Shown here in pieces: positions 4,263 to 59,633 of a DNA stretch of 64,000 nt. The stretch's first letter is position 1. The number at the start of each line of letters is the position of its first letter. The translations under genes and the position numbers were made by a program. The notes beneath the pieces were generated by a model that saw only the letters and a program-made list of their open reading frames with translations, had not been told where the DNA came from and searched no databases. Source of the DNA: Eledone cirrhosa (lineage: Eukaryota); the NCBI GenBank assembly GCA_964016885.1, contig OZ024744.1:8308001-8372000 (forward strand). Reading direction: 5' to 3'.

Positions 4263-4290
4263 CTGAAGAAGGGCTTATGCCCGAAACGTC
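4263..4290 (+). ncRNA. Minimal hammerhead-like motif of a PLE pseudo-LTR
   Basis: CTGAAGA-A-GGGC-TTAT-GCCC-GAA-ACGT-C: catalytic core, stem II and palindromic ACGT stem III; stem I is poorly supported. Confidence 0.55.
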
Positions 4291-4403
4291 GTTCCCCACC
4301 CCCACTCTCAAGAGCGTGAACCTAATAAACCTTTATTTGTCTGCCTCTCTGTTTTTGTTTCCGTCCAAGTTTTCACTATATATATATATATATATATATA
4401 CAC

Positions 4404-12610: not shown

Positions 12611-13428
12611 ATGATGGCTTCCCCCTCGTTATCGAATATGGCCATCACACGATAAAAAGATATTAATAATTAACAGTGCTGCGATCGAACGTGGCTTTTT
12701 AGCCCAGCCAATGATCTAAAATGTCTTGCACAGAGTCGGCAACCAAAACATTCACTGGGAATAGTCGGCTGTGGTTGGAGTTCGTGTACTTTTACATGTC
12801 GTTTGAACCCTCCTGCTGATTTACACTCTCTATCACATGTTTGGCAAGCATGATGAGTAACATCTCCAACAGCAGCCTGGTAGTCAACCACTGGTCTTAC
12901 TTTATGACTGCGAAGATGACTTTCGAGTCCAGCTTTGCTTAGGCAGAGTCTCGCACATACGCTGCATGTCAGCACCATAGGAGGACCCTCGCCGTCTGGA
13001 AGTGCAATGCCCTTCCTCACATCCCGCTTTACTTTCTCGTATGCGATTCGAGATGCCTCAAAGGCAACTTTTCCCTCATATACAGTCTTTCTCCATTTAT
13101 TACGATCAGCAGCAATATTTTCCCATGTATCAGCAGAGATGTTAGCGCCTTTCAGAGAGGCTTTCAAGGAATCCTTATACCTCTTTTTTGGTTTATGTGG
13201 AGGTCGTTTTCCTTTAACCAACTCTCCATAGAAGAGTTGTTTTGGTATTCTAGAATCCTTCATCCTGGCAAGGTCACCACTCCAACGGAGTCGTTGCTTA
13301 AGCACAAGAGTTTCTATACTTTCACACAAGGGCTGGATGTGGTCCCTCCAGTGAACGCCATGGGTCTGTCAGAGACACATCTTATGGAAACGTTCCAACT
13401 GTTTAAGGTGGTGTCGATATGTGACCCA
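12611..13428 (-). mobile_element. 5'-truncated RTE copy, same family as 1-935, in inverted orientation
   Basis: ORF 12670-13329 is nearly identical to 45-602 (includes a 6-bp indel). Upstream WVTYRHHLKQLERFHKMCL. Short 3'UTR ending ..GATGGCCATATTCGATAACGAGGGGGAAGCCATCAT plus (TA/TATG)n. Confidence 0.88.
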
Positions 13429-13489: not shown

Positions 13490-13842
13490 ATGATGGCTGC
13501 CCCCTCGCTATCGAGTATGACCATTGCACGATATACCATTAATAATCATTAATTAATTCTATCGTGCAATGCCTGTGCGTGAAGAATATTATTAACGTGA
13601 GGAAAGACTGTGCACTGAGCCAATCCCACTCTCTGAGCGACAGTAGCTATAACCTAAAAGAAGAAAATATCAACATCATCGGTAACTACTGAGCTGCAGG
13701 TTTTATGTCGGAGTTAACCCAGTTTCCTGAGTTGCCTTCTCCTAGAAGAATGCCCTGACAAGGACTAGGGGTCGTTCACTCCCAGTGGTTTAACTGTTCG
13801 ATTGGGAGTCCAGCCCGACTATTTCTATGTCCCCGCGCATGA
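13490..13842 (-). mobile_element. Bipartite RTE-derived short element (5'UTR segment fused to the 3' terminal motif)
   Basis: 13570-13840 resembles the RTE 5'UTR (AAAAGAAGAA..TCAACATCATCGG; CCTTCTCCTAG). 13490-13531 is the RTE 3' terminal motif followed by (TA)n. No coding sequence lies between them. Confidence 0.65.
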
Positions 13843-13871
13843 ATTAAAAAAAAAACACTCACCTAGTGACA

Positions 13872-13928
13872 CTCATACATACGACACACACGCACGCACG
13901 CACATACACACACATACACACACACACA

Positions 13929-14006
<78 letters not shown>

Positions 14007-14083
14007 CGCACACAACAACACTCATGCATACAAACAAACACACGCCACTCACTTATACACACACACACACACACATATATATA

Positions 14084-14135
<52 letters not shown>
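13872..14135. repeat. (CA)n/(TA)n compound microsatellite
   Basis: Directly visible. Confidence 0.95.
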
Positions 14136-14139
<4 letters not shown>

Positions 14140-14369
14140 ACATTAACAGAGTAAGCTTTAAGCTATACTCTGACTGGCCTCCGTAGACTCAACAAACATT
14201 AGGATATACCTTAGCATAATCCCAGTTTAACGTTTGGGGTGCTAACTATATGTATTTTGCGGAAAGCCAGTTATATTATTTTATATGAGACATAATTAAA
14301 ATATATCTCCCTTTCCAAACCAATGTCTACAATTATAAGTTTTCTACAAGTTGGGAGAATGTGTCCGGG

Positions 14370-17300
14370 TTATGGACACATGTTGGACGGTGTTGTTGTT
14401 GTTGTAGACATTGGTGCCGCTGTTGTTGTTGTTGTTGTAGACATTGGTGCCGCTGTTGTTGTTGTTGTTGTAGACATTGGTGCCGCTGTTGTTGTTGTTG
14501 TTGTAGACATTGGTGCCGCTGTTGTTGTTGTTGTAGACGTTGGTGCCGCTGTTGTTGTTGTTGTTGTAGACATTGGTGCCGCTGTTGTTGTTGTTGTAGA
14601 CATTGGTGCCGCTGTTGTTGTTGTTGTTGGAGACATTGGTGCCGCTGTTGTTGTTGTTGTAGACATTGGTGCCGCTGTTGTTGTTGTTGTTGTAGACATT
14701 GGTGCCGCTGTTGTTGTTGTTGTAGACATTGGCGCCGGTGTTGTTGTTGTTGTTGTAGACATTGGTGCCGCTGTTGTTGTTGTTGTAGACATTGGTGCCG
14801 CTGTTGTTGTTGTTGTAGACATTGGTGCCGCTGTTGTTGTTGTTGTTGGAGACATTGGTGCCGCTGTTGTTGTTGTTGTTGTAGACATTGGTGCCGCTGT
14901 TGTTGTTGTTGTAGACATTGGTGCCGCTGTTGTTGTTGTTGTTGTAGACATTGGTGCCGGTGTTGTTGTTGTTGTTGTAGACATTGGTGCCGCTGTTGTT
15001 GTTGTTGTAGACATTGGTGCCGCTGTTGTTGTTGTTGTAGACATTGGTGCCGCTGTTGTTGTTGTTGTTGTAGACATTGGTGCCGCTGTTGTTGTTGTTG
15101 TTGTAGACATTGGTGCCGCTGTTGTTGTTGTTGTTGTAGACATTGGTGCCGCTGTTGTTGTTGTTGTAGAAATTGGTGCCGCTATTGTTGTTGTTGTTGT
15201 AGACATTGGTGCCGCTGTTGTTGTTGTTGTAGACGTTGGTGCCGCTGTTGTTGTTGTTGTTGTTGTAGACATTGGTGCCGGTGTTGTTGTTGTTGTAGAC
15301 ATTGGTGCCGCTGTTGTTGTTGTTGTAGACATTGGTGCCGCTGTTGTTGTTGTTGTTGTAGACATTGGTGCCGCTGTTGCTGTTGTTGTAGACATTGGTG
15401 CCGGTGTTGTTGTTGTTGTTGTAGACATTGGTGCCGCTGTTGTTGTTGTTGTTGTTGTAGACATTGGTGCCGCTGTTGTTGTTGTTGTTGTAGACATTGG
15501 TGCCGCTGTTGTTGTTGTTGTTGTTGTAGACATTGGTGCCGCTGTTGTTGTTGTTGTTGTAGACATTGGTGCCGCTGTTGTTGTTGTTGTTGTTGTAGAC
15601 ATTGGTGCCGCTGTTGTTGTTGTTGTAGACATTGGTGCCGCTGTTGTTGTTGTTGTAGACATTGGTGCCGCTGTTGTTGTTGTTGTTGTAGACATTGGTG
15701 CCGCTGTTGTTGTTGTTGTAGACATTGGTGCCGGTGTTGTTGTTGTTGTTGTAGACATTGGTGCCGCTGTTGTTGTTGTTGTTGTAGACATTGGTGCCGC
15801 TGTTGTTGTTGTTGTTGTAGACATTGGTGCCGCTGTTGTTGTTGTTGTTGTTGTTGTAGACATTGGTGCCGCTGTTGTTGTTGTTGTTGTAGACATTGGT
15901 GCCGCTGTTGTTGTTGTTGTAGACATTGGTGCCGGTGTTGTTGTTGTTGTTGTAGACATTGGTGCCGCTGTTGTTGTTGTTGTTGTAGACATTGGTGCCG
16001 CTGTTGTTGTTGTTGTTGTAGACATTGGTGCCGCTGTTGTTGTTGTTGTTGTAGACATTGGTGCCGCTGTTGTTGTTGTTGTTGTAGACATTGGTGCCGC
16101 TGTTGTTGTTGTTGTTGTAGACATTGGTGCCGCTGTTGTTGTTGTTGTAGACATTGGTGCCGCTGTTGTTGTTGTTGTTGTAGACATTGGTGCCGCTGTT
16201 GTTGTTGTTGTTGTAGACATTGGTGCCGGTGTTGTTGTTGTTGTTGTAGACATTGGTGCCGCTGTTGTTGTTGTTGTAGACATTGGTGCCGCTGTTGTTG
16301 TTGTTGTTGTAGACATTGGTGCCGCTGTTGTTGTTGTTGTTGTAGACATTGGTGCCGCTGTTGTTGTTGTTGTTGTAGACATTGGTGCCGCTGTTGTTGT
16401 TGTTGTAGACATTGGTGCCGGTGTTGTTGTTGTTGTTGTAGACATTGGTGCCGCTGTTGTTGTTGTTGTTGTAGACATTGGTGCCGCTGTTGTTGTTGTT
16501 GTTGTAGACATTGGTGCCGCTGTTGTTGTTGTTGTAGACATTGGTGCCGCTGTTGTTGTTGTTGTTGTAGACATTGGTGCCGCTGTTGTTGTTGTTGTAG
16601 ACATTGGTGCCGGTGTTGTTGTTGTTGTTGTAGACATTGGTGCCGGTGTTGTTGTTGTTGTTGTAGACATTCGTGCCGCTGTTGTTGTTGTTGTTGTAGA
16701 CATTGGTGCCGCTGTTGTTGTTGTTGTTGTAGACATTGGTGCCGCTGTTGTTGTTGTTGTTGTAGACATTGGTGCCGCTGTTGTTGTTGTTGTAGACATT
16801 GGTGCCGGTGTTGTTGTTGTTGTTGTAGACATTGGTGCCGCTGTTGTTGTTGTTGATGTAGACATTGGTGCCGCTGTTGTTGTTGTTGTTGTAGACATTG
16901 GTGCCGCTGTTGTTGTTGTTGTTGTAGACATTGGTGCCGCTGTTGTTGTTGTTGTAGACATTGGTGCCGCTGTTGTTGTTGTTGTTGTAGACATTGGTGC
17001 CGCTGTTGTTGTTGTTGTTGTAGACATTGGTGCCGGTGTTGTTGTTGTTGTTGTAGACATTGGTGCCGCTGTTGTTGTTGTTGTAGACATTGGTGCCGCT
17101 GTTGTTGTTGTTGTTGTAGACATTGGTGCCGCTGTTGTTGTTGTTGTTGTAGACATTGGTGCCGCTGTTGTTGTTGTTGTTGTAGACATTGGTGCCGCTG
17201 TTGTTGTTGTTGTAGACATTGGTGCCGGTGTTGTTGTTGTTGTTGTAGACATTGGTGCCGCTGTTGTTGTTGTTGTTGTAGACATTGGTGCCGCTGTTGT

Positions 17301-29300: not shown

Positions 29301-32300
29301 TGTAGACATTGGTGCCGGTGTTGTTGTTGTTGTTGTAGACATTGGTGCCGCTGTTGTTGTTGTTGTTGTAGACATTGGTGCCGGTGTTGTTGTTGTTGTT
29401 GTAGACATTGGTGCCGGTGTTGTTGTTGTTGTTGTAGACATTGGTGCCGCTGTTGTTGTTGTTGTTGTAGACATTGGTGCCGGTTGTTGTTGTTGTTGTT
29501 GTAGACATTGGTGCCGCTGTTGTTGCTGTTGTTGTAGACATTGGTGCCGGTGTTGTTGTTGTTGTTGTAGACATTGGTGCCGCTGTTGTTGCTGTTGTTG
29601 TAGACATTGGTGCCGGTGTTGTTGTTGTTGTTGTAGACATTGGTGCCGGTGTTGTTGTTGTTGTTGTAGACATTGGTGCCGCTGTTGTTGCTGTTGTTGT
29701 AGACATTGGTGCCAGTGTTGTTGTTGTTGTTGTAGACATTGGTGCCGCTGTTGTTGTTGTTGTTGTAGACATTGGTGCCGCTGTTGTTGTTGTTGTTGTA
29801 GACATTGGTGCCGCTGTTGTTGTTGTTGTTGTAGACATTGGTGCCGCTGTTGTTGTTGTTGTAGACATTGGTGCCGGTGTTGTTGTTGTTGTAGACATTG
29901 GTGCCGGTGTTGTTGTTGTTGTTGTTGTTGTAGACATTGGTGCCGCTGTTGTTGTTGTTGTAGACATTGGTGCCGGTGTTGTTGTTGTTGTTGTTGTAGA
30001 CATTGGTGCCGGTGTTGTTGTTGTTGTTGTTGTTGTAGACATTGGTGCCGCTGTTGTTGTTGTTGTAGACATTGGTGCCGCTGTTGTTGTTGTTGTTGTA
30101 GATATTGGTGCCGGAGTTGTTGTTGTTGTTGTAGACATTCGTGCCGCTGTTGTTGTTGTTGTAGACATTGGTGCCGCTGTTGTTGTTGTTGTAGACATTG
30201 GTGCCACTGTTGTTGTTGTTGTAGACATTGGTGCCGGTGTTGTTGTTGTAGACATTGGTGCCGCTGTTGTTGTTGTTGTAGACATTGGTGCCACTGTTGT
30301 TGTTGTTGTAGATATTGGTGCCGGTGTTGTTGTTGTTGTAGACATTGGTGCCGCTGTTGTTGTTGTTGTTGTAGACATTGGTGCCGCTGTTATTGTTGTT
30401 GTTGTTGTAGACATTGGTGCCGCTGATGTTGTTGTTGTAGACATTGGTGCCGGTGTTGTTGTTGTTGTAGACATTGGTGCCGCTGTTGTTGTTGTTGTAG
30501 ACATTGGTGCCGCTGTTGTTGTTGTTGTAAACATTGGTGCCGCTGTTGTTGTTGTTGTAGATATTGGTGCCGGTGTTGTTGTTGTTGTAGACATTGGTGC
30601 CGCTGTTGTTGTTGTTGTAGACATTGGTGCCGCTGATGTTGTTGTTGTAGACATTGGTGCCGGTGTTGTTGTTGTTGTAGACATTGGTGCCGCTGTTGTT
30701 GTTGTTGTAGACATTGGTGCCGGTGTTGTTGTTGTTGTAGACATTGGTGCCGCTGATGTTGTTGTTGTAGACATTGGTGCCGGTGTTGTTGTTGTTGTTG
30801 TAGACATTGGTGCCGCTGATGTTGTTGTTGTAGACATTGGTGCCGGTGTTGTTGTTGTTGTAGACATTGGTGCCGCTGTTGTTGTTGTTGTAGACATTGG
30901 TGCCGCTGTTGTTGTTGTTGTAGATATTGGTGCCGGTGTTGTTGTTGTTGTAGACATTGGTGCCGCTGATGTTGTTGTTGTAGACATTGGTGCCGGTGTT
31001 GTTGTTGTTGTAGACATTGGTGCCGCTGTTGTTGTTGTTGTAGACATTGGTGCCGCTGTTGTTGTTGTTGTAGATATTGGTGCCGGTGTTGTTGTTGTTG
31101 TAGACATTGGTGCCGCTGTTGTTGTTGTTGTAGACATTGGTGCCGCTGATGTTGTTGTTGTAGACATTGGTGCCGGTGTTGTTGTTGTTGTAGACATTGG
31201 TGCCGCTGTTGTTGTTGTTGTAGACATTGGTGCCGCTGATGTTGTTGTTGTAGACATTGGTGCCGCTGATGTTGTTGTTGTAGACATTGGTGCCGCTGTT
31301 GTTGTTGTTGTAGACATTGGTGCCGGTGTTGTTGTTGTAGACATTGGTGCCGCTGTTGTTGTTGTTGTAGACATTGGTGCCGCTGTTGTTGTTGTTGTAG
31401 ATATTGGTGCCGGTGTTGTTGTTGTTGTAGACATTGGTGCCGCTGATGTTGTTGTTGTAGACATTGGTGCCGGTGTTGTTGTTGTTGTAGACATTGGTGC
31501 CGCTGATGTTGTTGTTGTAGACATTGGTGCCGGTGTTGTTGTTGTTGTAGACATTGGTGCCTGTGTTGTTGTTGTTGTAGACATTGGTGCCGCTGTTGTT
31601 GTTGTTGTAGACATTGGTGCCGCTGTTGTTGTTGTTGTAGACATTGGTGCCACTGTTGTTGTTGTTGTAGACATTGGTGCCGCTGTTGTTGTTGTTGTTG
31701 TAGACATTGGTGCCTGTGTTGTTGTTGTTGTAGACATTGGTGCCGCTGTTGTTGTTGTTGTAGACGTTGGTGCCGCTGTTGTTGTTGTTGTTGTAGACAT
31801 TGGTGCCGCTGTTGTTGCTGTTGTTGTAGACATTGGTGCCGGTGTTGTTGTTGTTGTAGACATTTGTGCAGCTGTTGTTGTTGTTGTAGACATTGGTGCC
31901 GCTGTTGTTGTTGTTGTAGACGTTGGTGCCGCTGTTGTTGTTGTTGTAGACATTGGTGCCGCTGTTGTTGTTGTTGTTGTAGACATTGGTGCCGCTGTTG
32001 TTGTTGTTGTAGACATTGGTGCCGCTATTGTTGTTGTTGTTGTAGACATTGGTGCCGCTGTTGTTGTTGTTGTAGACATTGGTGCCGCTGTTGTTGTTGT
32101 TGTTGTAGACATTGGTGCCGCTGTTGTTGTTGTTGTTGTAGACATTGGTGCCGGTGTTGTTGTTGTTGTTGTAGACATTGGTGCCGCTGTTGTTGTTGTT
32201 GTAGACATTGGTGCCGGTGTTGTTGTTGTTGTAGACATTGGTGCCGCTGTTGTTGTTGTTGTTGTAGACATTGGTGCCGCTGTTGTTGTTGTTGTTGTAG

Positions 32301-50300: not shown

Positions 50301-53017
50301 GTGCCGCTGTTGTTGTTGTTGTAGACATTGGTGCCGCTGTTGTTGTTGTTGTAGACATTGGTGCCACTGTTGTTGTTGTTGTAGACATTGGTGCCGCTGT
50401 TGTTGTTGTTGTAGACATTGGTGCCGGTGTTGTTGTTGTAGACATTGGTGCCGCTGTTGTTGTTGTTGTAGACATTGGTGCCGCTGTTGTTGTTGTTGTA
50501 GATATTGGTGCCGGTGTTGTTGTTGTTGTAGACATTGGTGCCGCTGATGTTGTTGTTGTAGACATTGGTGCCGGTGTTGTTGTTGTTGTAGACATTGGTG
50601 CCTGTGTTGTTGTTGTTGTAGACATTGGTGCCTGTGTTGTTGTTGTTGTAGACATTGGTGCCGCTGTTGTTGTTGTTGTAGACATTGGTGCCGCTGTTGT
50701 TGTTGTTGTAGACATTGGTGCCGGTGTTGTTGTTGTTGTAGACATTGGTGCCGCTGTTGTTGTTGTTGTTGTAGACATTGGTGCCGCTGTTGTTGTTGTT
50801 GTAGACATTGGTGCCGCTGTTGTTGTTGTTGTTGTAGACATTGGTGCCTGTGTTCTTGTTGTTGTAGACATTGGTGCCTGTGTTGTTGTTGTTGTAGACA
50901 TTGGTGCCGCTGTTGTTGTTGTTGTAGACATTGGTGCCGCTGTTGTTGTTGTTGTAGACATTGGTGCCGGTGTTGTTGTTGTTGTAGACATTGGTGCCGC
51001 TGTTGTTGTTGTTGTAGACATTGGTGCCGGTGTTGTTGTTGTTGTAGACATTGGTGCCGCTGTTGTTGTTGTTGTAGACATTGGTGCCCGTGTTGTTGTT
51101 GTAGACATTGGTGCCGCTGTTGTTGTTGTTGTAGACATTGGTACCGCTGTTGTTGTTGTTGTTGTAGACATTAGTGCCGCTGTTGTTGTTGTTGTAGACA
51201 TTGGTGCCGGTGTTGTTGTTGTAGACATTGGTGCCGCTGTTGTTGTTGTTGTAGACATTGGTGCCGCTGTTGTTGTTGTTGTAGACATTGGTGCCGCTGT
51301 TGTTGTTGTTGTAGACATTGGTGCCGCTGTTGTTGTTGTTGTTGTAGACATTGGTGCCGGTGTTGTTGTTGTTGTAGACATTGGTGCCGCTGTTGTTGTT
51401 GTTGTAGACATTGGTGCCGCTGTTGTTGTTGTTGTAGACATTGGTGCCGCTGTTGTTGTTGTTGTAGACATTGGTGCCGCTGTTGTTGTTGTTGTAGACA
51501 TTGGTGCCGCTGTTGTTGTTGTTGTTGTAGACATTGGTGCCGGTGTTGTTGTTGTTGTAGACATTGGTGCCGCTGTTGTTGTTGTAGACACTGGTGCCGC
51601 TGTTGTTGCTGTTGTTGTAGACATTGGTGCCGCTGTTGTTGTTGTTGTAGACTTTGGTGCCGGTGTTGTTGTTGTTGTTGTAGACATTGGTGCCGCTGTT
51701 GTTGTTGTTGTAGACATTGGTGCCGTTGCTGTTGTTGTTGTTGTAGACATTGGTGCCGCTGTTGTTGTTGTTGTTGTAGACATTGGTGCCGCTGTTGTTG
51801 TTGTTGTAGACATTGGTGCCGCTGTTGTTGTTGTTGTAGACATTGGTGCCGGTGTTGTTGTTGTTGTAGACATTGGTGCCGCTGTTGTTGTTGTTGTAGA
51901 TATTGGTGCCGCTGTTGTTGTTGTTGTTGTAGACATTGGTGCCGCTGTTGTTGTTGTTGTTGTAGACATTGGTGCCGCTGTTGTTGTTGTTGTTGTAGAC
52001 ATTGGTGCCGCTGTTGTTGTTGTTGTAGACATTGGTGCCGGTGTTGTTGCTGTTGTAGACATTGGTGCCGCTGTTGTTGTTGTTGTAGACATTGGTGCCG
52101 CTGTTGTTGTTGTTGTAGACATTGGTGCCGCTGTTGTTGTTGTTGTAGACATTGGTGCCGCTGTTGTTGTTGTTGTAGACATTGGTGCCGCTGTTGTTGT
52201 TGTTGTTGTAGACATTGGTGCCGCTGTTGTTGTTGTTGTTGTAGACATTGGTGCCGCTGTTGTTGTTGTTGTAGGCATTGGTGCCGCTGTTGTTGTTGTT
52301 GTAGACATTGGTGCCGCTGTTGTTGTTGTTGTAGACATTGGTGCCGGTGTTGTTGTTGTTGTAGACATTGGTGCCGCTGATGTTGTTGTTGTAGACATTG
52401 GTGCCGCTGTTGTTGTTGTTGTAGACATTGGTGCCGCTGTTGTTGTTGTTGTAGACATTGGTGCCGGTGTTGTTGTTGTTGTAGACATTGGTGCCGCTGT
52501 TGTTGTTGTTGTAGACATTGGTGCCGGTGTTGTTGCTGTTGTAGACATTGGTGCCGCTGTTGTTGTTGTTGTAGACATTGGTGTCGCTGTTGTTGTTGTT
52601 GTAGACATTGGTGCCGCTGTTGTTGCTGTTGTTGTAGACATTGGTGCCGCTGTTGTTGTTGTTGTAGATATTGGTGCCGCTGTTGTTGTTGTTGTTGTAG
52701 ACATTGGTGCCGCTGTTGTTGTTGTTGTTGTAGACATTGGTGCCGCTGTTGTTGTTGTTGTTGTAGACATTGGTGCCGCTGTTGTTGTTGTTGTAGACAT
52801 TGGTGCCGGTGTTGTTGCTGTTGTAGACATTGGTGCCGGTGTTGTTGTTGTTGTAGACATTGGTGCCGCTGTTGTTGTTGTTGTAGACATTGGTGCCGCT
52901 GTTGTTGTTGTTGTAGACATTGGTGCCGGTGTTGTTGTTGTTGTAGACATTGGTGCCGCTGTTGTTGTTGTTGTAGACATTGGTGCCGCTGTTGTTGTTG
53001 TTGTAGACATTGGTGCC
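14370..53017 (-). CDS. Putative giant mucin-like PTS domain (T5-6[A/P]APMS)n ending TTTTTPSNMCP*; 5' end lost in the gap; one 1-bp frameshift at ~29485
   Basis: Codons (ACA)n GCG/CCG GCA CCA ATG TCT are open from 14370-29484 and 29486-53017; Thr/Ser/Pro-rich composition as in mucins. Caveats: no start, signal peptide or flanking exon is visible, and none of these codons can reach a stop by a single substitution, so openness is not proof of coding. Confidence 0.45.
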
Positions 53018-54621
53018 GTGTTGTTGTTGTTGTAGACATTGGTGCCGCTGTTGTTGTTGTTGTAGACATTGGTGCCGCTGTTGTTGTTGTTGTAGACATT
53101 GGTGCCGCTGTTGTTGTTGTTGTAGACATTGGTGCCGCTGTTGTTGTTGTTGTAGACATTGGTGCCGCTGTTGTTGTTGTTGTTGTTGTAGACATTGGTG
53201 CCGCTGTTGTTGTTGTAGACATTGGTGCCGCTGTTGTTGTTGTTGTAGACATTGGTGCCGCTGTTGTTGTTGTTGTTGTTGTAGACATTGGTGCCGCTGT
53301 TGTTGTTGTTGTTGTAGACATTGGTGCCGCTGTTGTTGTTGTAGACACTGGTGCCGCTGTTGTTGTTGTAGACATTGGTGCCGCTGTTGTTGTTGTTGTA
53401 GACATTGGTGCCGCTGTTGTTGTTGTAGACACTGGTGCCGCTGTTGTTGTTGTAGACGTTGGTGCCGTTGTTGTTGTTGTAGACATTGGTGCCGCTGTTG
53501 TTGTTGTTGTTGTAGACATTGGTGCCGCTGTTGTTGTTGTTGTTGTAGACATTGGTGCCGCTGTTGTTGTTGTTGTAGACATTGGTGCCGCTGTTGTTGT
53601 TGTTGTTGTAGACATTGGTGCCGCTGTTGTTGTTGTTGTTGTAGACATTGGTGCCGCTGTTGTTGTTGTTGTTGTAGACATTGGTGCCGCTGTTGTTGTT
53701 GTTGTTGTAGACATTGGTGCCGCTGTTGTTGTTGGTTGTTGTAGACATTGGTGCCGCTGTTGTTGTTGTTGTTGTAGACATTGGTGCCGCTGTTGTTGTT
53801 GTTGTAGACATTGGTGCCGCTGTTGTTGTGTTGTTGTAGACATTGGTGCCGCTGTTGTTGTTGTTGTTGTAGACATTGGTGCCGCTGTTGTTGTTGTTGT
53901 TGTAGACATTGGTGCCGCTGTTGTTGTTGTTGTTGTAGACATTGGTGCCGCTGTTGTTGTTGTAGACATTGGTGCCGCTGTTGTTGTTGTTGTAGACATT
54001 GGTGCCGCTGTTGTTGTTGTTGTTGTAGACATTGGTGCCGCTGTTGTTGTTGTTGTTGTAGACATTGGTGCCGCTGTTGTTGTTGTTGTAGACATTGGTG
54101 CCGCTGTTGTTGTTGTTGTTGTAGACATTGGTGCCGCTGTTGTTGTTGTTGTAGACATTGGTGCCGCTGTTGTTGTTGTTGTTGTAGACATTGGTGCCGC
54201 TGTTGTTGTTGTTGTAGACATTGGTGCCGCTGTTGTTGTTGTTGTAGACATTGGTGCCGCTGTTGTTGTTGTTGTTGTAGACATTGGTGCCGCTGTTGTT
54301 GTTGTTCGTGCAGACATTGGTGCCGCTGTTGTTGTTGTTGTAGACATTGGTGCCGCTGTTGTTGTTGTTGTTGTAGACAATTGGTGCCGGTGTTGTTGTT
54401 GTTTGTGTAGACATTGGTGCCGCTGTTTGTTGTTGTTGTAGACATTGGTGCCGCTGTTGTTGTTGTTGTAGACATTGGTGCCGCTGTTGTTGTGTTTGTT
54501 GTAGACATTGGTGCCGCTGTTGTTGTTGTGTAGACATTGTGCCGCTGTTGTTGTTGATGTAGACATTGGTGCCGCTGTTGTTGTTGTTGTTGAAGACATT
54601 GGTGCCGCTGTGTTGTTTGTT
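14388..54621. repeat. Giant ~40 kb minisatellite array, unit GTAGACATTGGTGCCG[C/G]T(GTT)n, mostly 30 or 33 bp
   Basis: Uninterrupted tandem units from 14388 to the N gap. Length variation is in the GTT count; recurrent point variants define higher-order blocks. Confidence 0.99.
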
Positions 54622-54821
54622 NNNNNNNNNNNNNNNNNNNNNNNNNNNNNNNNNNNNNNNNNNNNNNNNNNNNNNNNNNNNNNNNNNNNNNNNNNNNNNN
54701 NNNNNNNNNNNNNNNNNNNNNNNNNNNNNNNNNNNNNNNNNNNNNNNNNNNNNNNNNNNNNNNNNNNNNNNNNNNNNNNNNNNNNNNNNNNNNNNNNNNN
54801 NNNNNNNNNNNNNNNNNNNNN
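54622..54821. other. Assembly gap (200 N)
   Basis: Fixed-size N run; the true distance and adjacency are unknown. Confidence 0.99.
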
Positions 54822-55711
54822 TTTCTCTCTATCATAAATCTTTTTAATCTCAATTTCATCCTTAATTTATTATTATTATTTTTTTCTCCCCATCAACGAA
54901 CTCATTATTAATACATATGAATTCAATATAAATTTTTCTCAAATCCTATACATAAACTTTTTCTCTTTGCTAATTTTAAGATTCCTACATTTCTCCTTTT
55001 GAATATTCACCCACAATTATTATTTTTTTCTCTCTATCTCCATACATAATCTCCCTTCGTTATTTTTTTTCTCTCTATCTCCATACATAATTTCCCTTCG
55101 TTAATTTTCAAATTCCTTTAATTTATACATTATCTTCCAACGGTTCCCAACCTCTCTATATTAAAACATTATATCTTTTTCTCAGTTATAAAAACTATCT
55201 CTTTCTCTCTATCACCCATCTCTCCCTTTCCACCTTCACTCTCATCTCCTCCCCTTTTTTTCATCCTTTCCACCCCCACCCCTCCCTAAATATAATATAT
55301 TTTTTCCTCGCACATATCCTCCCTTCGTTAATTTTCAAAATTTTTAATTTATACAGTATCTTCCAACGGTTTTCAACCCCTCTATATAAAATATATCTCC
55401 TCTCTGTTATAAAAACTATCTCTTTCTCTCTATCACCCATCTCTCCCTCTCATCTCCTTCCCTTTTCATCCTTTTCTCTCCCCCCCTCTCTAAATAAAAT
55501 ATTTTTCCCAATATCACACATCAATCTAAAACCACTTTTCATATGTTGATTTAAAACTGCACTATCAACAAGTGTTTTTTTAGCCTTCATATCATGTTCT
55601 CCTGTTTTATCTGATGAAAACACAAATATTATTGTTTGATGATGTTTGTTTTTGAAATGCGCATAATAAAATATATTGAACTCCTTTAACCATCTTTTGA
55701 TCTTATATTAT
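54822..55711 (+). repeat. 5' pseudo-LTR (left end cut by the gap)
   Basis: Direct repeat of 58742-59633, offset 3920-3922; contains internal sub-duplications (CCCTTCGTTAATTTTCAAA..TATCTTCCAACGG twice). Confidence 0.9.
55603..55673 (+). ncRNA. Minimal type I hammerhead ribozyme
   Basis: TGTTTTAT-CTGATGA-(stem II)-GAA-ATGCGCAT-A/ATAAAATA: 8-bp stem I including one G-U pair, complete core, palindromic stem III; predicted cut after 55665. Confidence 0.8.
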
Positions 55712-55850
55712 GCATACTCCAGTCCCACAAACTGTAGAGTGCTTCTTATCCGATATCTGCATTGCTTTATTGTACTACAATAAAACTCACCTCCTACATT
55801 TACTTGCTCCTTAACGGTTGAGCGCTTACTCTCATATTGGATACCTTTTG

Positions 55851-58280
55851 ATGGTCCTTCACCTCTTCTTCTACAACATGGATTATTACAACATAACCAA
55901 TTCTACTAAAGACATTCCTATACCTGGTAAATCTGAATTCACCAAACTTCTTATTGAAAAAACTGACTCCTTCGTAAGAAGACTTAGATGGACAGCCTAT
56001 TTCTATGACCAGCGCCTAAAAGGGAACTTTCATACCAAAGAACACAACTTCCTCGATCATCTTTTTAATTCCAGACGAAATCCTCCTTCCAACAAAAATC
56101 TAGCACAATTCGAGGAAGAATTAACTAAAATTATAAAAAATCTTAAATTCAAGAGATACCCTTACAAAGGACAAGAGCACCTTGTAAATCTCAAGAACAC
56201 AATCTCTAACCTAAATTCCTCAAAAAATGTTTTAGTCCACTCTGACAAAACCAATAACCTATATGGTATTTCCAAGGATAATTATAACAACCTTATCCTA
56301 AAGGAACTTAGGAAAAAGTATCGTAAAACCAACCATGAAAATTTAGAATGCATAAACCTTGAAGCCTATGAGATTATGTCAAAACTTGGCATTGAAAAAA
56401 AGACCGAACCATTCCTCCCAAGAACTCCGAGGATAAATCTCAAGGATCACAAAAACAATTTTCGCACTGAACTACCTGTTAGATTAATCGCCCCCTCTAA
56501 ATCTGATCTGGGGGTTGTTAGTAAAGCCATCTTGGATAGGATTATCCCACAGGTTAGTTCTAATTGCTCTTCTTTAAACCTAAATTTATGGTTTGGTACT
56601 TCTGAAGTGATTGGCTGGTTCAACAAATTGGATAATAAAAACAAACTAAAATTTATTCAATTCGATATTGCCAGCTACTATTCCTCCATTTCGCCTTCAC
56701 TTCTCAATAATGCTCTATCTTTCGCACTTAAATATTCTGACATCACCACAGATGAACTTCACATCATCCTCACCGCACGTAAAACCATCCTAGAGTTCAA
56801 CAACGAATATTGGACCAGAGCCGATACCTCTAACAACTTCGACATCACAATGGGAGCATCCGATTCATCCCAATTGACTGATTTAATTGGTATCTTCATT
56901 TTGAACTCTTTGAGTCGGAAAATTCCTCAACTTCGCGGTGGAATTTATCGTGACGATGGACTCTTTACTATCCTAAATTGCAATATAGTTAAACTTAATA
57001 TTATTAAGAACAATATACGTAATCTCTTTAACCAACATAACCTAAAAATTGAATTTGATAATAGTACCAAACTAGCTAATTTCTTGGATGTATCTCTTAA
57101 TCTTGACACTGGCCTATATTACCCTTACCATAAAAACAATGAGAATCTTAATTATGTTAACTTTAAATCTAACCATCCTACCAATATCAAGAATGCTATA
57201 GTTAATAATATTGGAAATAGAATATCTAACATATCTTCTAATAAAAACATCTTTGATGCTAACGCCAATTACTATAATAACGCACTTTCTAAAGCTGGCT
57301 ATCCAGATAAAATCAAATATAATAAAGAAACAAATTCTAGGAAAACTTACAGTAGAATATTTAATCATAACCATTCCAATAATTTTAATAAAAGACCTAG
57401 ATACAAAAACATAATCTGGTATAATGCTCCTTTCTCCATCTCTATTAATAACAATATTCCTAAATTATTTTTTAGTGCCTTAAATAAATGCTTCCCTCCC
57501 TCACATATCTATAGTAAAATATTTAACAAACACACCATTAAATTTTCGTATTCTACATCCTCCAATATTTCCAACATCATTTCTAAACACAACAACAAAA
57601 TATTAAATACTAAATCTCTTCCTTCCAATATTGAATCTCATAATAACAATAATAGTACTCCTGACGTCATTGTAAACCCTAGGCTAACTTCTGTAAACCC
57701 AAATGCAACGTCAAACACAACTTCGCTAAATGTTCATAATCCAACTCTAAATCAAGAAACTATTATTCCTATTATTCCTATCGCAAACAACTTCTCCAAT
57801 CCAATTCCTTCTATAGATAACACTAGATCACTCATTAATAATCTCTCTAATTGCAACTGCCGCATTAAAAATAAATGTCCTCTCAACAACCATTGCCTCG
57901 ATAAAAACTTAATTTATGAATGTAAAATTATAACTAGCACCAACTCCTTCACCTATTTTGGCTCCACTTCCACCTCTTTTAAAGCTCGTCTCTATAATCA
58001 TCATTCATCTTTCAAATACAAACTTAAAAGAACTAACACTGCTCTCTCAGAACTCATATGGTCCTTAAAAGACAAAAACATTAAATATAACATCTTTTGG
58101 AAAAAGATTTCTTCTGCATCCTCGTACTTGAACAGTTCTCTATCTAAAATCTGTAATCTCTGCCTAAATGAAAAATTTACCATTATCTCTAACCTAGAAT
58201 CCATAATAAATAGACGCTCGGATTTGTTTTCCATCTGCCTTCATAAATTCCATAGAACTTTTCACAAAGTATACAGTTAA
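55851..58280 (+). CDS. PLE reverse transcriptase + C-terminal GIY-YIG endonuclease (~800 aa)
   Basis: STKDIPIP..LIEKT..RRLRW, SDKT, FDIASYYSSI, MGASDS, YRDDGL, NFLDV, KSNHP; CNCRIKNKCP (CxCx5C); LIYEC..YFGST..FKARLYNH..CNLCLNEK..INRR. No internal stops. Start uncertain (ATG at 55851 or 55878). Confidence 0.92.
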   Translation: MVLHLFFYNMDYYNITNSTKDIPIPGKSEFTKLLIEKTDSFVRRLRWTAYFYDQRLKGNFHTKEHNFLDHLFNSRRNPPSNKNLAQFEEELTKIIKNLKFKRYPYKGQEHLVNLKNTISNLNSSKNVLVHSDKTNNLYGISKDNYNNLILKELRKKYRKTNHENLECINLEAYEIMSKLGIEKKTEPFLPRTPRINLKDHKNNFRTELPVRLIAPSKSDLGVVSKAILDRIIPQVSSNCSSLNLNLWFGTSEVIGWFNKLDNKNKLKFIQFDIASYYSSISPSLLNNALSFALKYSDITTDELHIILTARKTILEFNNEYWTRADTSNNFDITMGASDSSQLTDLIGIFILNSLSRKIPQLRGGIYRDDGLFTILNCNIVKLNIIKNNIRNLFNQHNLKIEFDNSTKLANFLDVSLNLDTGLYYPYHKNNENLNYVNFKSNHPTNIKNAIVNNIGNRISNISSNKNIFDANANYYNNALSKAGYPDKIKYNKETNSRKTYSRIFNHNHSNNFNKRPRYKNIIWYNAPFSISINNNIPKLFFSALNKCFPPSHIYSKIFNKHTIKFSYSTSSNISNIISKHNNKILNTKSLPSNIESHNNNNSTPDVIVNPRLTSVNPNATSNTTSLNVHNPTLNQETIIPIIPIANNFSNPIPSIDNTRSLINNLSNCNCRIKNKCPLNNHCLDKNLIYECKIITSTNSFTYFGSTSTSFKARLYNHHSSFKYKLKRTNTALSELIWSLKDKNIKYNIFWKKISSASSYLNSSLSKICNLCLNEKFTIISNLESIINRRSDLFSICLHKFHRTFHKVYS

Positions 58281-58512: not shown

Positions 58513-58741
58513 CCCTCTATCATAAATCTTTTTAATCTCAATTTCATCCTTAATTTATTATTATATATATTTTTTTTAATATATACTCATATATTCTTTA
58601 AAATATACCCATCTACCTTACTTTAAAGGGCATTATACACTCTATAATACCCGTTTACTCATCACCCTCATTATATCTCTTCGTAAAACAATAACATTTG
58701 TTTTTGACATTTTGAGTATTCATCCGCAATCATTATTATTT

Positions 58742-59625
58742 TTTCTCTCTATCATAAATCTTTTTAATCTCAATTTCATCCTTAATTTATTATTATTATT
58801 TTTTTCTCCCCATCAACGAACTCATTATTAATACATATGAATTCAATATAAATTTTTCTCAAATCCTATACATAAACTTTTTCTCTTTGCTAATTTTAAG
58901 ATTCCTACATTTCTCCTTTTGAATATTCACCCACAATTATTATTTTTTTCTCTCTATCTCCATACATAATCTCCCTTCGTTATTTTTTTTTTCTCTCTAT
59001 CTCCATACATAATTTCCCTTCGTTAATTTTCAAATTCCTTTAATTTATACATTATCTTCCAACGGTTCCCAACCTCTCTATATTAAAACATTATATCTTT
59101 TTCTCAGTTATAAAAACTATCTCTTTCTCTCTATCACCCATCTCTCCCTTTCCACCTTCACTCTCATCTCCTCCCCTTTTTTTCATCCTTTCCACCCCCA
59201 CCCCTCCCTAAATATAATATATTTTTTCCTCGCACATATCCTCCCTTCGTTAATTTTCAAAATTTTTAATTTATACAGTATCTTCCAACGGTTTTCAACC
59301 CCTCTATATAAAATATATCTCCTCTCTGTTATAAAAACTATCTCTTTCTCTCTATCACCCATCTCTCCCTCTCATCTCCTTCCCTTTTCATCCTTTTCTC
59401 TCCCCCCCTCTCTAAATAAAATATTTTTCCCAATATCACACATCAATCTAAAACCACTTTTCATATGTTGATTTAAAACTGCACTATCAACAAGTGTTTT
59501 TTTAGCCTTCATATCATGTTCTCCTGTTTTATCTGATGAAAACACAAATATTATTGTTTGATGATGTTTGTTTTTGAAATGCGCATAATAAAATATATTG
59601 AACTCCTTTAACCATCTTTTGATCT

Positions 59626-59633
<8 letters not shown>
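58742..59633 (+). repeat. 3' pseudo-LTR
   Basis: Near-identical to 54822-55711; preceded by a ~260-bp-period duplication (58337.. vs 58597..). Confidence 0.9.
59525..59595 (+). ncRNA. Minimal type I hammerhead ribozyme (second pLTR copy)
   Basis: Identical to 55603-55673; CTGATGA at 59533. Confidence 0.8.

Follow-up and report, generated by a model that had tools for sequence, protein, structure and literature searches.

The window, meaning the whole 64,000-nt stretch analysed here, was taken from Eledone cirrhosa (assembly GCA_964016885.1, contig OZ024744.1, positions 8,308,001 to 8,372,000 of the forward strand); coordinates without a contig name refer to it. It contains a satellite array whose edge adjoins a fragment of a dispersed repeat, designated family A, in which lie an inverted copy of the array core and a short hairpin. 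The features at this junction were as follows.

13532-14005, minus strand: downstream part of composite repeat B, continuing the B copy that hosts the array
14075-14135, no strand assigned: (TA)n tract anchoring the family-A fragment, located using TRF
14136-14374, minus strand: family-A fragment of 239 nt, the 3' part of the element, cut inside loop II
14179-14187, no strand assigned: second private mutation cluster, differing from 14 of 14 family-A copies
14317-14318, minus strand: predicted hammerhead scissile bond of family A, by hammerhead numbering in 12 of 14 copies
14319-14332, plus strand: 14-nt inverted array core, replacing the GAAA core and helix III of family A
14343-14349, plus strand: TCTACAA, native to family A, one arm of the element's own loop-II stem
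14359-14373, plus strand: hairpin arm 1 and loop with the minus-strand TAA, native to family A
14375-14381, plus strand: hairpin arm 2, seven new bases at the truncation point, reverse complement of 14359-14365
14381-14390, plus strand: putative clipped, array-like filler joining the fold-back to the first unit
14391-54621, no strand assigned: satellite array up to an assembly gap, 1,289 parsed units of 27-39 nt that include an (AAC)n run of variable length

The 27-nt unit pattern had 5,633 exact matches in the genome, 812 of them in the window. By a rare unit variant, the remainder of the array was assigned to the 70-kb contig C1661 and to an oppositely oriented block at C28:9.07-9.28 Mb; in the sampled stretches the array sequence runs up to a gap. 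These stretches and the window array share up to 55 identical units in a row (5-9 after shuffling), the shared runs exceeding the shuffled control in 7 of 9 stretches, and from the stretches the whole array was estimated at about 300 kb in the assembly. Units of non-triplet length were rare (7 of 1,289) and were located at 29480-29513 and 53016-54571, six of them in the noisy last 1.6 kb. The gaps at 54622-54821 and at C28:9,284,738 both border on this array, which has opposite orientations at the two places; probably the intervening contig is flipped, and the gap is the likely place of C1661.

The array start motif proved to be part of a second dispersed repeat, family B (592 matches), each copy of which holds about 1.5 proto-units. 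These include both the CCGGCAC and the CAGCGGCA variants, and the exact 14-mer core was found in none of 20 B copies. Of 20 B copies fetched, 18 gave a same-sense BLAST match to the segment at 13532-14005 at 81-90%, located 440-800 nt downstream of the array-start motif. The precursor units thus lie inside repeat B, and two B sides bracket the array, given a flipped contig between the gaps. Most simply, this arrangement would reflect expansion of the proto-units of a single diverged B copy and, in the scaffold, a flipped contig between the gaps. Since the array would on this reading have grown from family-B proto-units, seeding by the family-A flank is not supported, and the edge studied here is probably the natural downstream end of the array. 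Expansion of an internal tandem segment of a dispersed repeat into a long one-locus array resembles Tetris/TIR-220 as presented in the consulted part of PMC4079207, from which the present case differs in its unit (27-39 nt with an (AAC)n run) and in its host, an unclassified composite in place of an established foldback transposon. Family B itself is a multi-kilobase composite of several microsatellites and other repeats (copies L092-L111; L041:5600-6900), and one copy lies about 4 kb to the left of the window.

At C28:9,059,800-9,284,737 three tandem copies of a LINE, its flank and the array lie about 59-61 kb apart. The first two arrays of the C28:9.07-9.28 Mb block join a 5'-clipped L1/Tx1-like ORF1 by 5-nt microhomology, and neither of these LINE-joined ends has a hairpin or an inverted core. 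A junction of the window type was sought at the other array ends and none was found. ORF2 of the LINE (1,149 aa) has reverse transcriptase, endonuclease and zf-RVT matches. The array as N-terminus of the LINE ORF1 was rejected, the native ORF1 starting about 36 codons upstream of the join and having no array.

The flank had been described in the first-pass annotation as otherwise unique, a description that does not hold: 14140-14374 belongs to a dispersed family at 90-93% identity. A search of 14140-14395 against the species' own 3.0-Gb genome gave 39 other places at that identity among the 40 candidates scored out of 2,249, all of which stop matching at about 14374. An 18-nt anchor pattern taken from the family had 108 exact genome matches. 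The family-A monomer is 730 bp and non-coding, with no ORF of 130 aa within it, and in 4 of 4 loci, which were chosen for paired hits, it is followed head-to-tail by a partial copy. TA-rich tracts are the start point of most other copies as well, and among 100 anchor matches listed (of 108) nine are truncated within 62 nt of the anchor, all into (TA)n. The minus strand was taken as the sense of the element, which makes the window fragment its 3' part.

Much of what had been pointed out at this edge is ordinary family-A sequence. The further TCTACAA is located at 14343-14349 as reported, and it is native in 14 of 14 aligned copies and paired within the element in 3 of 3 folds; its likeness to the array core is incidental. 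Hairpin arm 1 is native in 12 of 14 aligned copies, and the loop GGTTATG, with its TAA, in all 14.

Two parts of the fragment are private to the window. The first is the 14-mer at 14319-14332, which is, as had been noted, the exact reverse complement of 14402-14415, over a match length of exactly 14 bp. The window has 1,172 forward copies of the array core and, in reverse, this one alone; it is also the sole reverse-complement array match in the roughly 23.5 kb of non-array window. Of 20,000 shuffled flanks, 3 contained the reverse complement of one of the 129 common array 14-mers, and the reversed (not complemented) control was empty; the match is therefore beyond chance, as had been argued. 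Compared with family A, 14319-14332 shows four substitutions and a 2-nt gap, all of which give the array core. The exact native 21-mer occupies the replacement site in 12 of 14 aligned copies and is one base off in the other two. No reverse-complement array match was found in these 14 copies, even at 10 nt, and the 14-mer itself was seen at that site in none of them and in none of the 100 anchor matches listed (of 108).

The second private part is hairpin arm 2. The perfect 8-bp stem 14359-14366/14374-14381 with its 7-nt loop is present as described, and folding of 14300-14430 gave z = -2.9 on the minus strand and -2.7 on the plus strand. Family A reads on as TAGAAG where the window has the seven new bases, and arm 2 was found in 0 of 14 aligned copies and 0 of 100 anchor matches listed (of 108); counted by eye, 98 of these 100 continue natively and two end at the anchor. 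Seven bases complementary to a site within about 25 nt are expected by chance in approximately 0.15% of cases (25/4^7). A 25-mer spanning the replacement and a 22-mer spanning the junction each occurred once in 3.0 Gb, and a genome search for a family-A subfamily with the window's private letters found none. Because the other copies have neither the 14-mer nor arm 2, the 14-mer is a private replacement copied from the array, in support of the earlier suggestion that it is the scar of a template switch. The copying ran from array to flank, since the core is absent from family A (0/14 aligned, 0/100 listed); the exact 14-mer is found in 1,172 array units and in 0 of 20 B copies.

The fragment has other changes. 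The cluster at 14179-14187 is unique in the genome with one mismatch allowed, and the best donor for it in the array or the element is only 6-7 nt; five further isolated private substitutions occur in the 239 nt. These substitutions and the cluster without a template indicate that the fragment is not a very recent copy.

These observations are probably best accounted for by a family-A fragment that acquired its private 14-mer and arm 2 through polymerase template switching, after the satellite already existed. First, a small number of AAC-rich proto-units in one copy of composite repeat B would have expanded to the array of about 300 kb. A family-A fragment anchored in the (TA)n of B would then have been joined to the array, either at its insertion or by a later deletion; a free 3' end may have folded back on 14359-14366, copied 7 nt and joined a clipped unit, in a snap-back, SD-MMEJ-like reaction. 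The 14-mer would stem from that event or a later one, in which a polymerase switched away from its template at the 10-bp palindrome of the element, took roughly 13 nt from an array unit in reverse and resumed in register (four-point type 1-4-3-2/3-2-1-4).

For the hairpin, SD-MMEJ as set out in the consulted part of PMC5728401 involves a motif of at least 4 bp lying at most 30 bp from the join, with a primer and a microhomology of at least 1 bp each. Here the motif is 8 bp and 15 bp from the join, and the primer (G14374/C14366) and the microhomology (T14381, common with the array-like filler) are each at the minimum of 1 nt. As in the snap-back form of that reaction, the insert is the reverse complement of sequence no more than 30 bp away and creates a new short hairpin; it departs from the cases excerpted from that source in its 1-nt primer and microhomology and in that the break may be the 5' end of a retroelement. 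Seven nucleotides of the filler match a unit variant that the window array has at two places only (14625, 14844). Family A's native continuation and the array unit share TGTAGA.

For the 14-mer, a single reverse-complement fragment explains all differences from the 14 family-A copies at the replacement site, which is the pattern sought in template-switch clusters using fragments of 14 bp or more (PMC5453318, in part). The type 1-4-3-2/3-2-1-4 makes up 31% of 794 human-chimp events of at least 14 bp in the same portion of that study, and template switches can create perfect stems in one step according to an excerpt of PMC8794818. Like the four-point switches described in the section of PMC5453318 drawn on here, the present case has substitutions and indels arising from one 14-bp reverse-complement copy that makes an inverted repeat; it differs from them in being polarised by paralogous repeat copies and not by an outgroup genome. 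With a satellite as donor, the particular unit that was copied cannot be told apart from the others.

Some points fit template switching less well. Microhomology at the switch points amounts to no more than 1-2 nt. At 42-55 nt from the break, the 14-mer is beyond the 30-bp range of SD-MMEJ, which calls for two events or a multi-step one. The cluster at 14179-14187, being without a template, gives this family-A copy another change that is left unexplained. The end of a Helitron or Helentron, which is marked by a hairpin and subterminal repeats, was considered and dropped, arm 2 being private and family A continuing past it. The feature is real, a known kind of mutational scar and likely without function, and both scars left non-coding DNA that is probably neutral. 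Its importance on this reading is small: two known types of mutational scar are seen cleanly at a satellite edge, polarised by paralogues.

The position of the 14-mer within the element bears on an alternative origin. The minus strand of family A has a type I hammerhead-like motif in 12 of 14 copies, in the order CUGAUGA, 8-bp helix II, 76-nt loop II, GAAA, 2-bp helix III and 4-bp helix I, with helix III closed by a palindromic loop; the register of helices I and III was read by eye. CUGAUGA, a helix II of 8/8 bp and the GAAA/helix III half were spanned in these 12 copies, 10 of them exact. The base of helix II is U.U, not G-C, helix II formed in 1 of 3 minimum free energy folds, and an Rfam scan (cmscan) of five family-A loci listed no hammerhead family, returning only below-threshold miRNA and snoRNA matches, mostly on simple repeats. 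An axolotl hammerhead with the same 2-bp helix III and U.U helix II base is described as self-cleaving in the consulted part of PMC7229834.

Judged by analogy, family A resembles a Penelope pLTR or a non-LTR retrozyme and is a candidate long-monomer retrozyme. Shared with those elements are its non-coding monomer-plus-partial tandems, truncation at one end, location in (TA)n, a putative type I motif with a 2-bp helix III, the palindromic loop and a long helix II (sources, each in part: PMC4209133, PMC7229834, PMC8557442 and bioRxiv 10.64898/2026.07.22.740005). Its monomer is 730 bp, against 150-450 bp for metazoan retrozymes in the portion of PMC7229834 used, and unlike them it has a structured 76-nt loop II and no Rfam hammerhead match; in the window copy, also unlike them, both halves of the hammerhead core are lost. 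The 14-mer destroys what remained of the hammerhead-like motif in this copy.

An autonomous Penelope-like partner for family A was sought in 18 loci and not found; short PLE-like fragments lie near family-A copies in three of the 18, two of these overlapping. In the window itself an 821-aa ORF with YRDD (55815-58280, plus strand) has no Pfam match and is flanked by long direct repeats at about 54820-55700 and 58740-59630; its YRDD and C-terminal region presumably represent a Penelope reverse transcriptase and a GIY-YIG domain. No relation of this region to family A was detected by BLAST. A minimal hammerhead-like motif with a helix II of at least 4 bp is also present at 4263-4300 (plus strand), ending a C-rich degenerate element.

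On this basis the 14-mer might instead be a scar of insertion: the reverse transcriptase of the element would have run off at the hammerhead cut, copied array DNA of the target site in reverse, and re-engaged the 5' cleavage product at helix II before dropping off and snapping back at 14374. The replacement covers exactly the stretch from the GAAA core through helix III and starts 2 nt from the predicted cut, two of the nine family-A truncations (100 matches listed of 108) end exactly at that cut, and the axolotl ribozyme with the same 2-bp helix III and U.U base self-cleaves. Against these stand several points. The native replacement site is also a 10-bp palindrome and a weak quasi-palindrome of the array core, which by itself favours a replication switch; two of nine is not a tested enrichment, and all nine truncation ends use TA microhomology; cleavage of the motif is predicted only, the autonomous partner is not established, and the example is single. 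We regard such a jump as unlikely, though it is the best placed of the alternatives to template switching. A template jump at a hammerhead cut was absent from those titles and abstract openings that our literature search listed. If true, the 14-mer would be a genomic fossil of ribozyme cleavage during retrotransposition that overwrote the catalytic core, and the hammerheads of Penelope-type or retrozyme RNAs would be cut during their use as insertion templates, a point that the consulted part of PMC8557442 leaves open.

That the 14-mer or the junction was made in silico, by assembly or polishing, is rather less probable still. The window form was absent from sequencing runs X1-X3 and X8, which covered at most a quarter of the stretch's words, rare paths being lost from contigs and X8 being RAD-seq. 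Contigs and reads of these runs carry the family letters at 14321-14331 and continue in family sequence past 14374; they support the polarity, with the family form as native, and leave the window junction unconfirmed rather than refuted. Also in favour of an artefact, indel noise marks the end of the array at a gap, next to a contig that appears to be flipped. The junction, however, is 40 kb from the noisy end, and only one of the seven non-triplet units falls outside the last 1.6 kb. Mis-polishing by family reads would bring back the family form and not array sequence; a fold-back chimera would leave a long inversion and not a 13-nt patch followed by the original register. Family B, moreover, is collinear across the whole array.

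The earlier suggestion of a functional 3' element concerned a giant Thr-rich (mucin-like) frame, whose termination, readthrough or stability the element would control by pairing with array units. The frame is closed, as stated, by a minus-strand TAA at 14370-14372, and readthrough would add the 32 codons given before the next stop. It stays open, in register, between 14373 and about 29513; the 1,282 triplet-length units have no stops in the Thr and Asn frames and 18 in the Gln frame, and the fold z is about -3. None of 90 single substitutions of the commonest unit makes a stop in the Thr frame, compared with two in the Asn and seven in the Gln frame, and the plus-strand Val frame (0 of 90) is equally stop-proof. 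The Thr frame is thus stop-proof by composition, and that it stays open does not argue for a gene. Family A supplies the stop and the loop in unmodified form, and the pairing occurs at one place only. The array starts inside family B (592 matches), in which the Thr frame already closes after some 1.5 units, so that both frame ends lie in dispersed repeats and not in unique gene context. Two other array segments end in LINE sequence with neither hairpin nor inverted core, and a single frame would be about 100,000 codons. A functional element is accordingly most improbable, and the readings as a 3'UTR, readthrough or priming element were not sustained. The case is a warning that an array edge comes to have a stop-free frame and a strong fold without selection.

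That the inverted 14-mer seeded the array, as the first copy of its unit, agrees with its exact match to the commonest core and is hardly credible otherwise, being largely refuted by a family A without the 14-mer and by a family B that already has proto-units of both variants and supplies the array start at the other end.

Other inverted repeats were observed in the material. Positions 1-604 and 12668-13265 form an inverted pair, 96.5% identical, and represent a retroelement 3' end encoding C2H2 zinc fingers. In repeat DNA, a 109-bp inverted repeat at 98% is found at 1451-1559/1688-1796, and a perfect 258-bp palindrome at L033:5938-6195.
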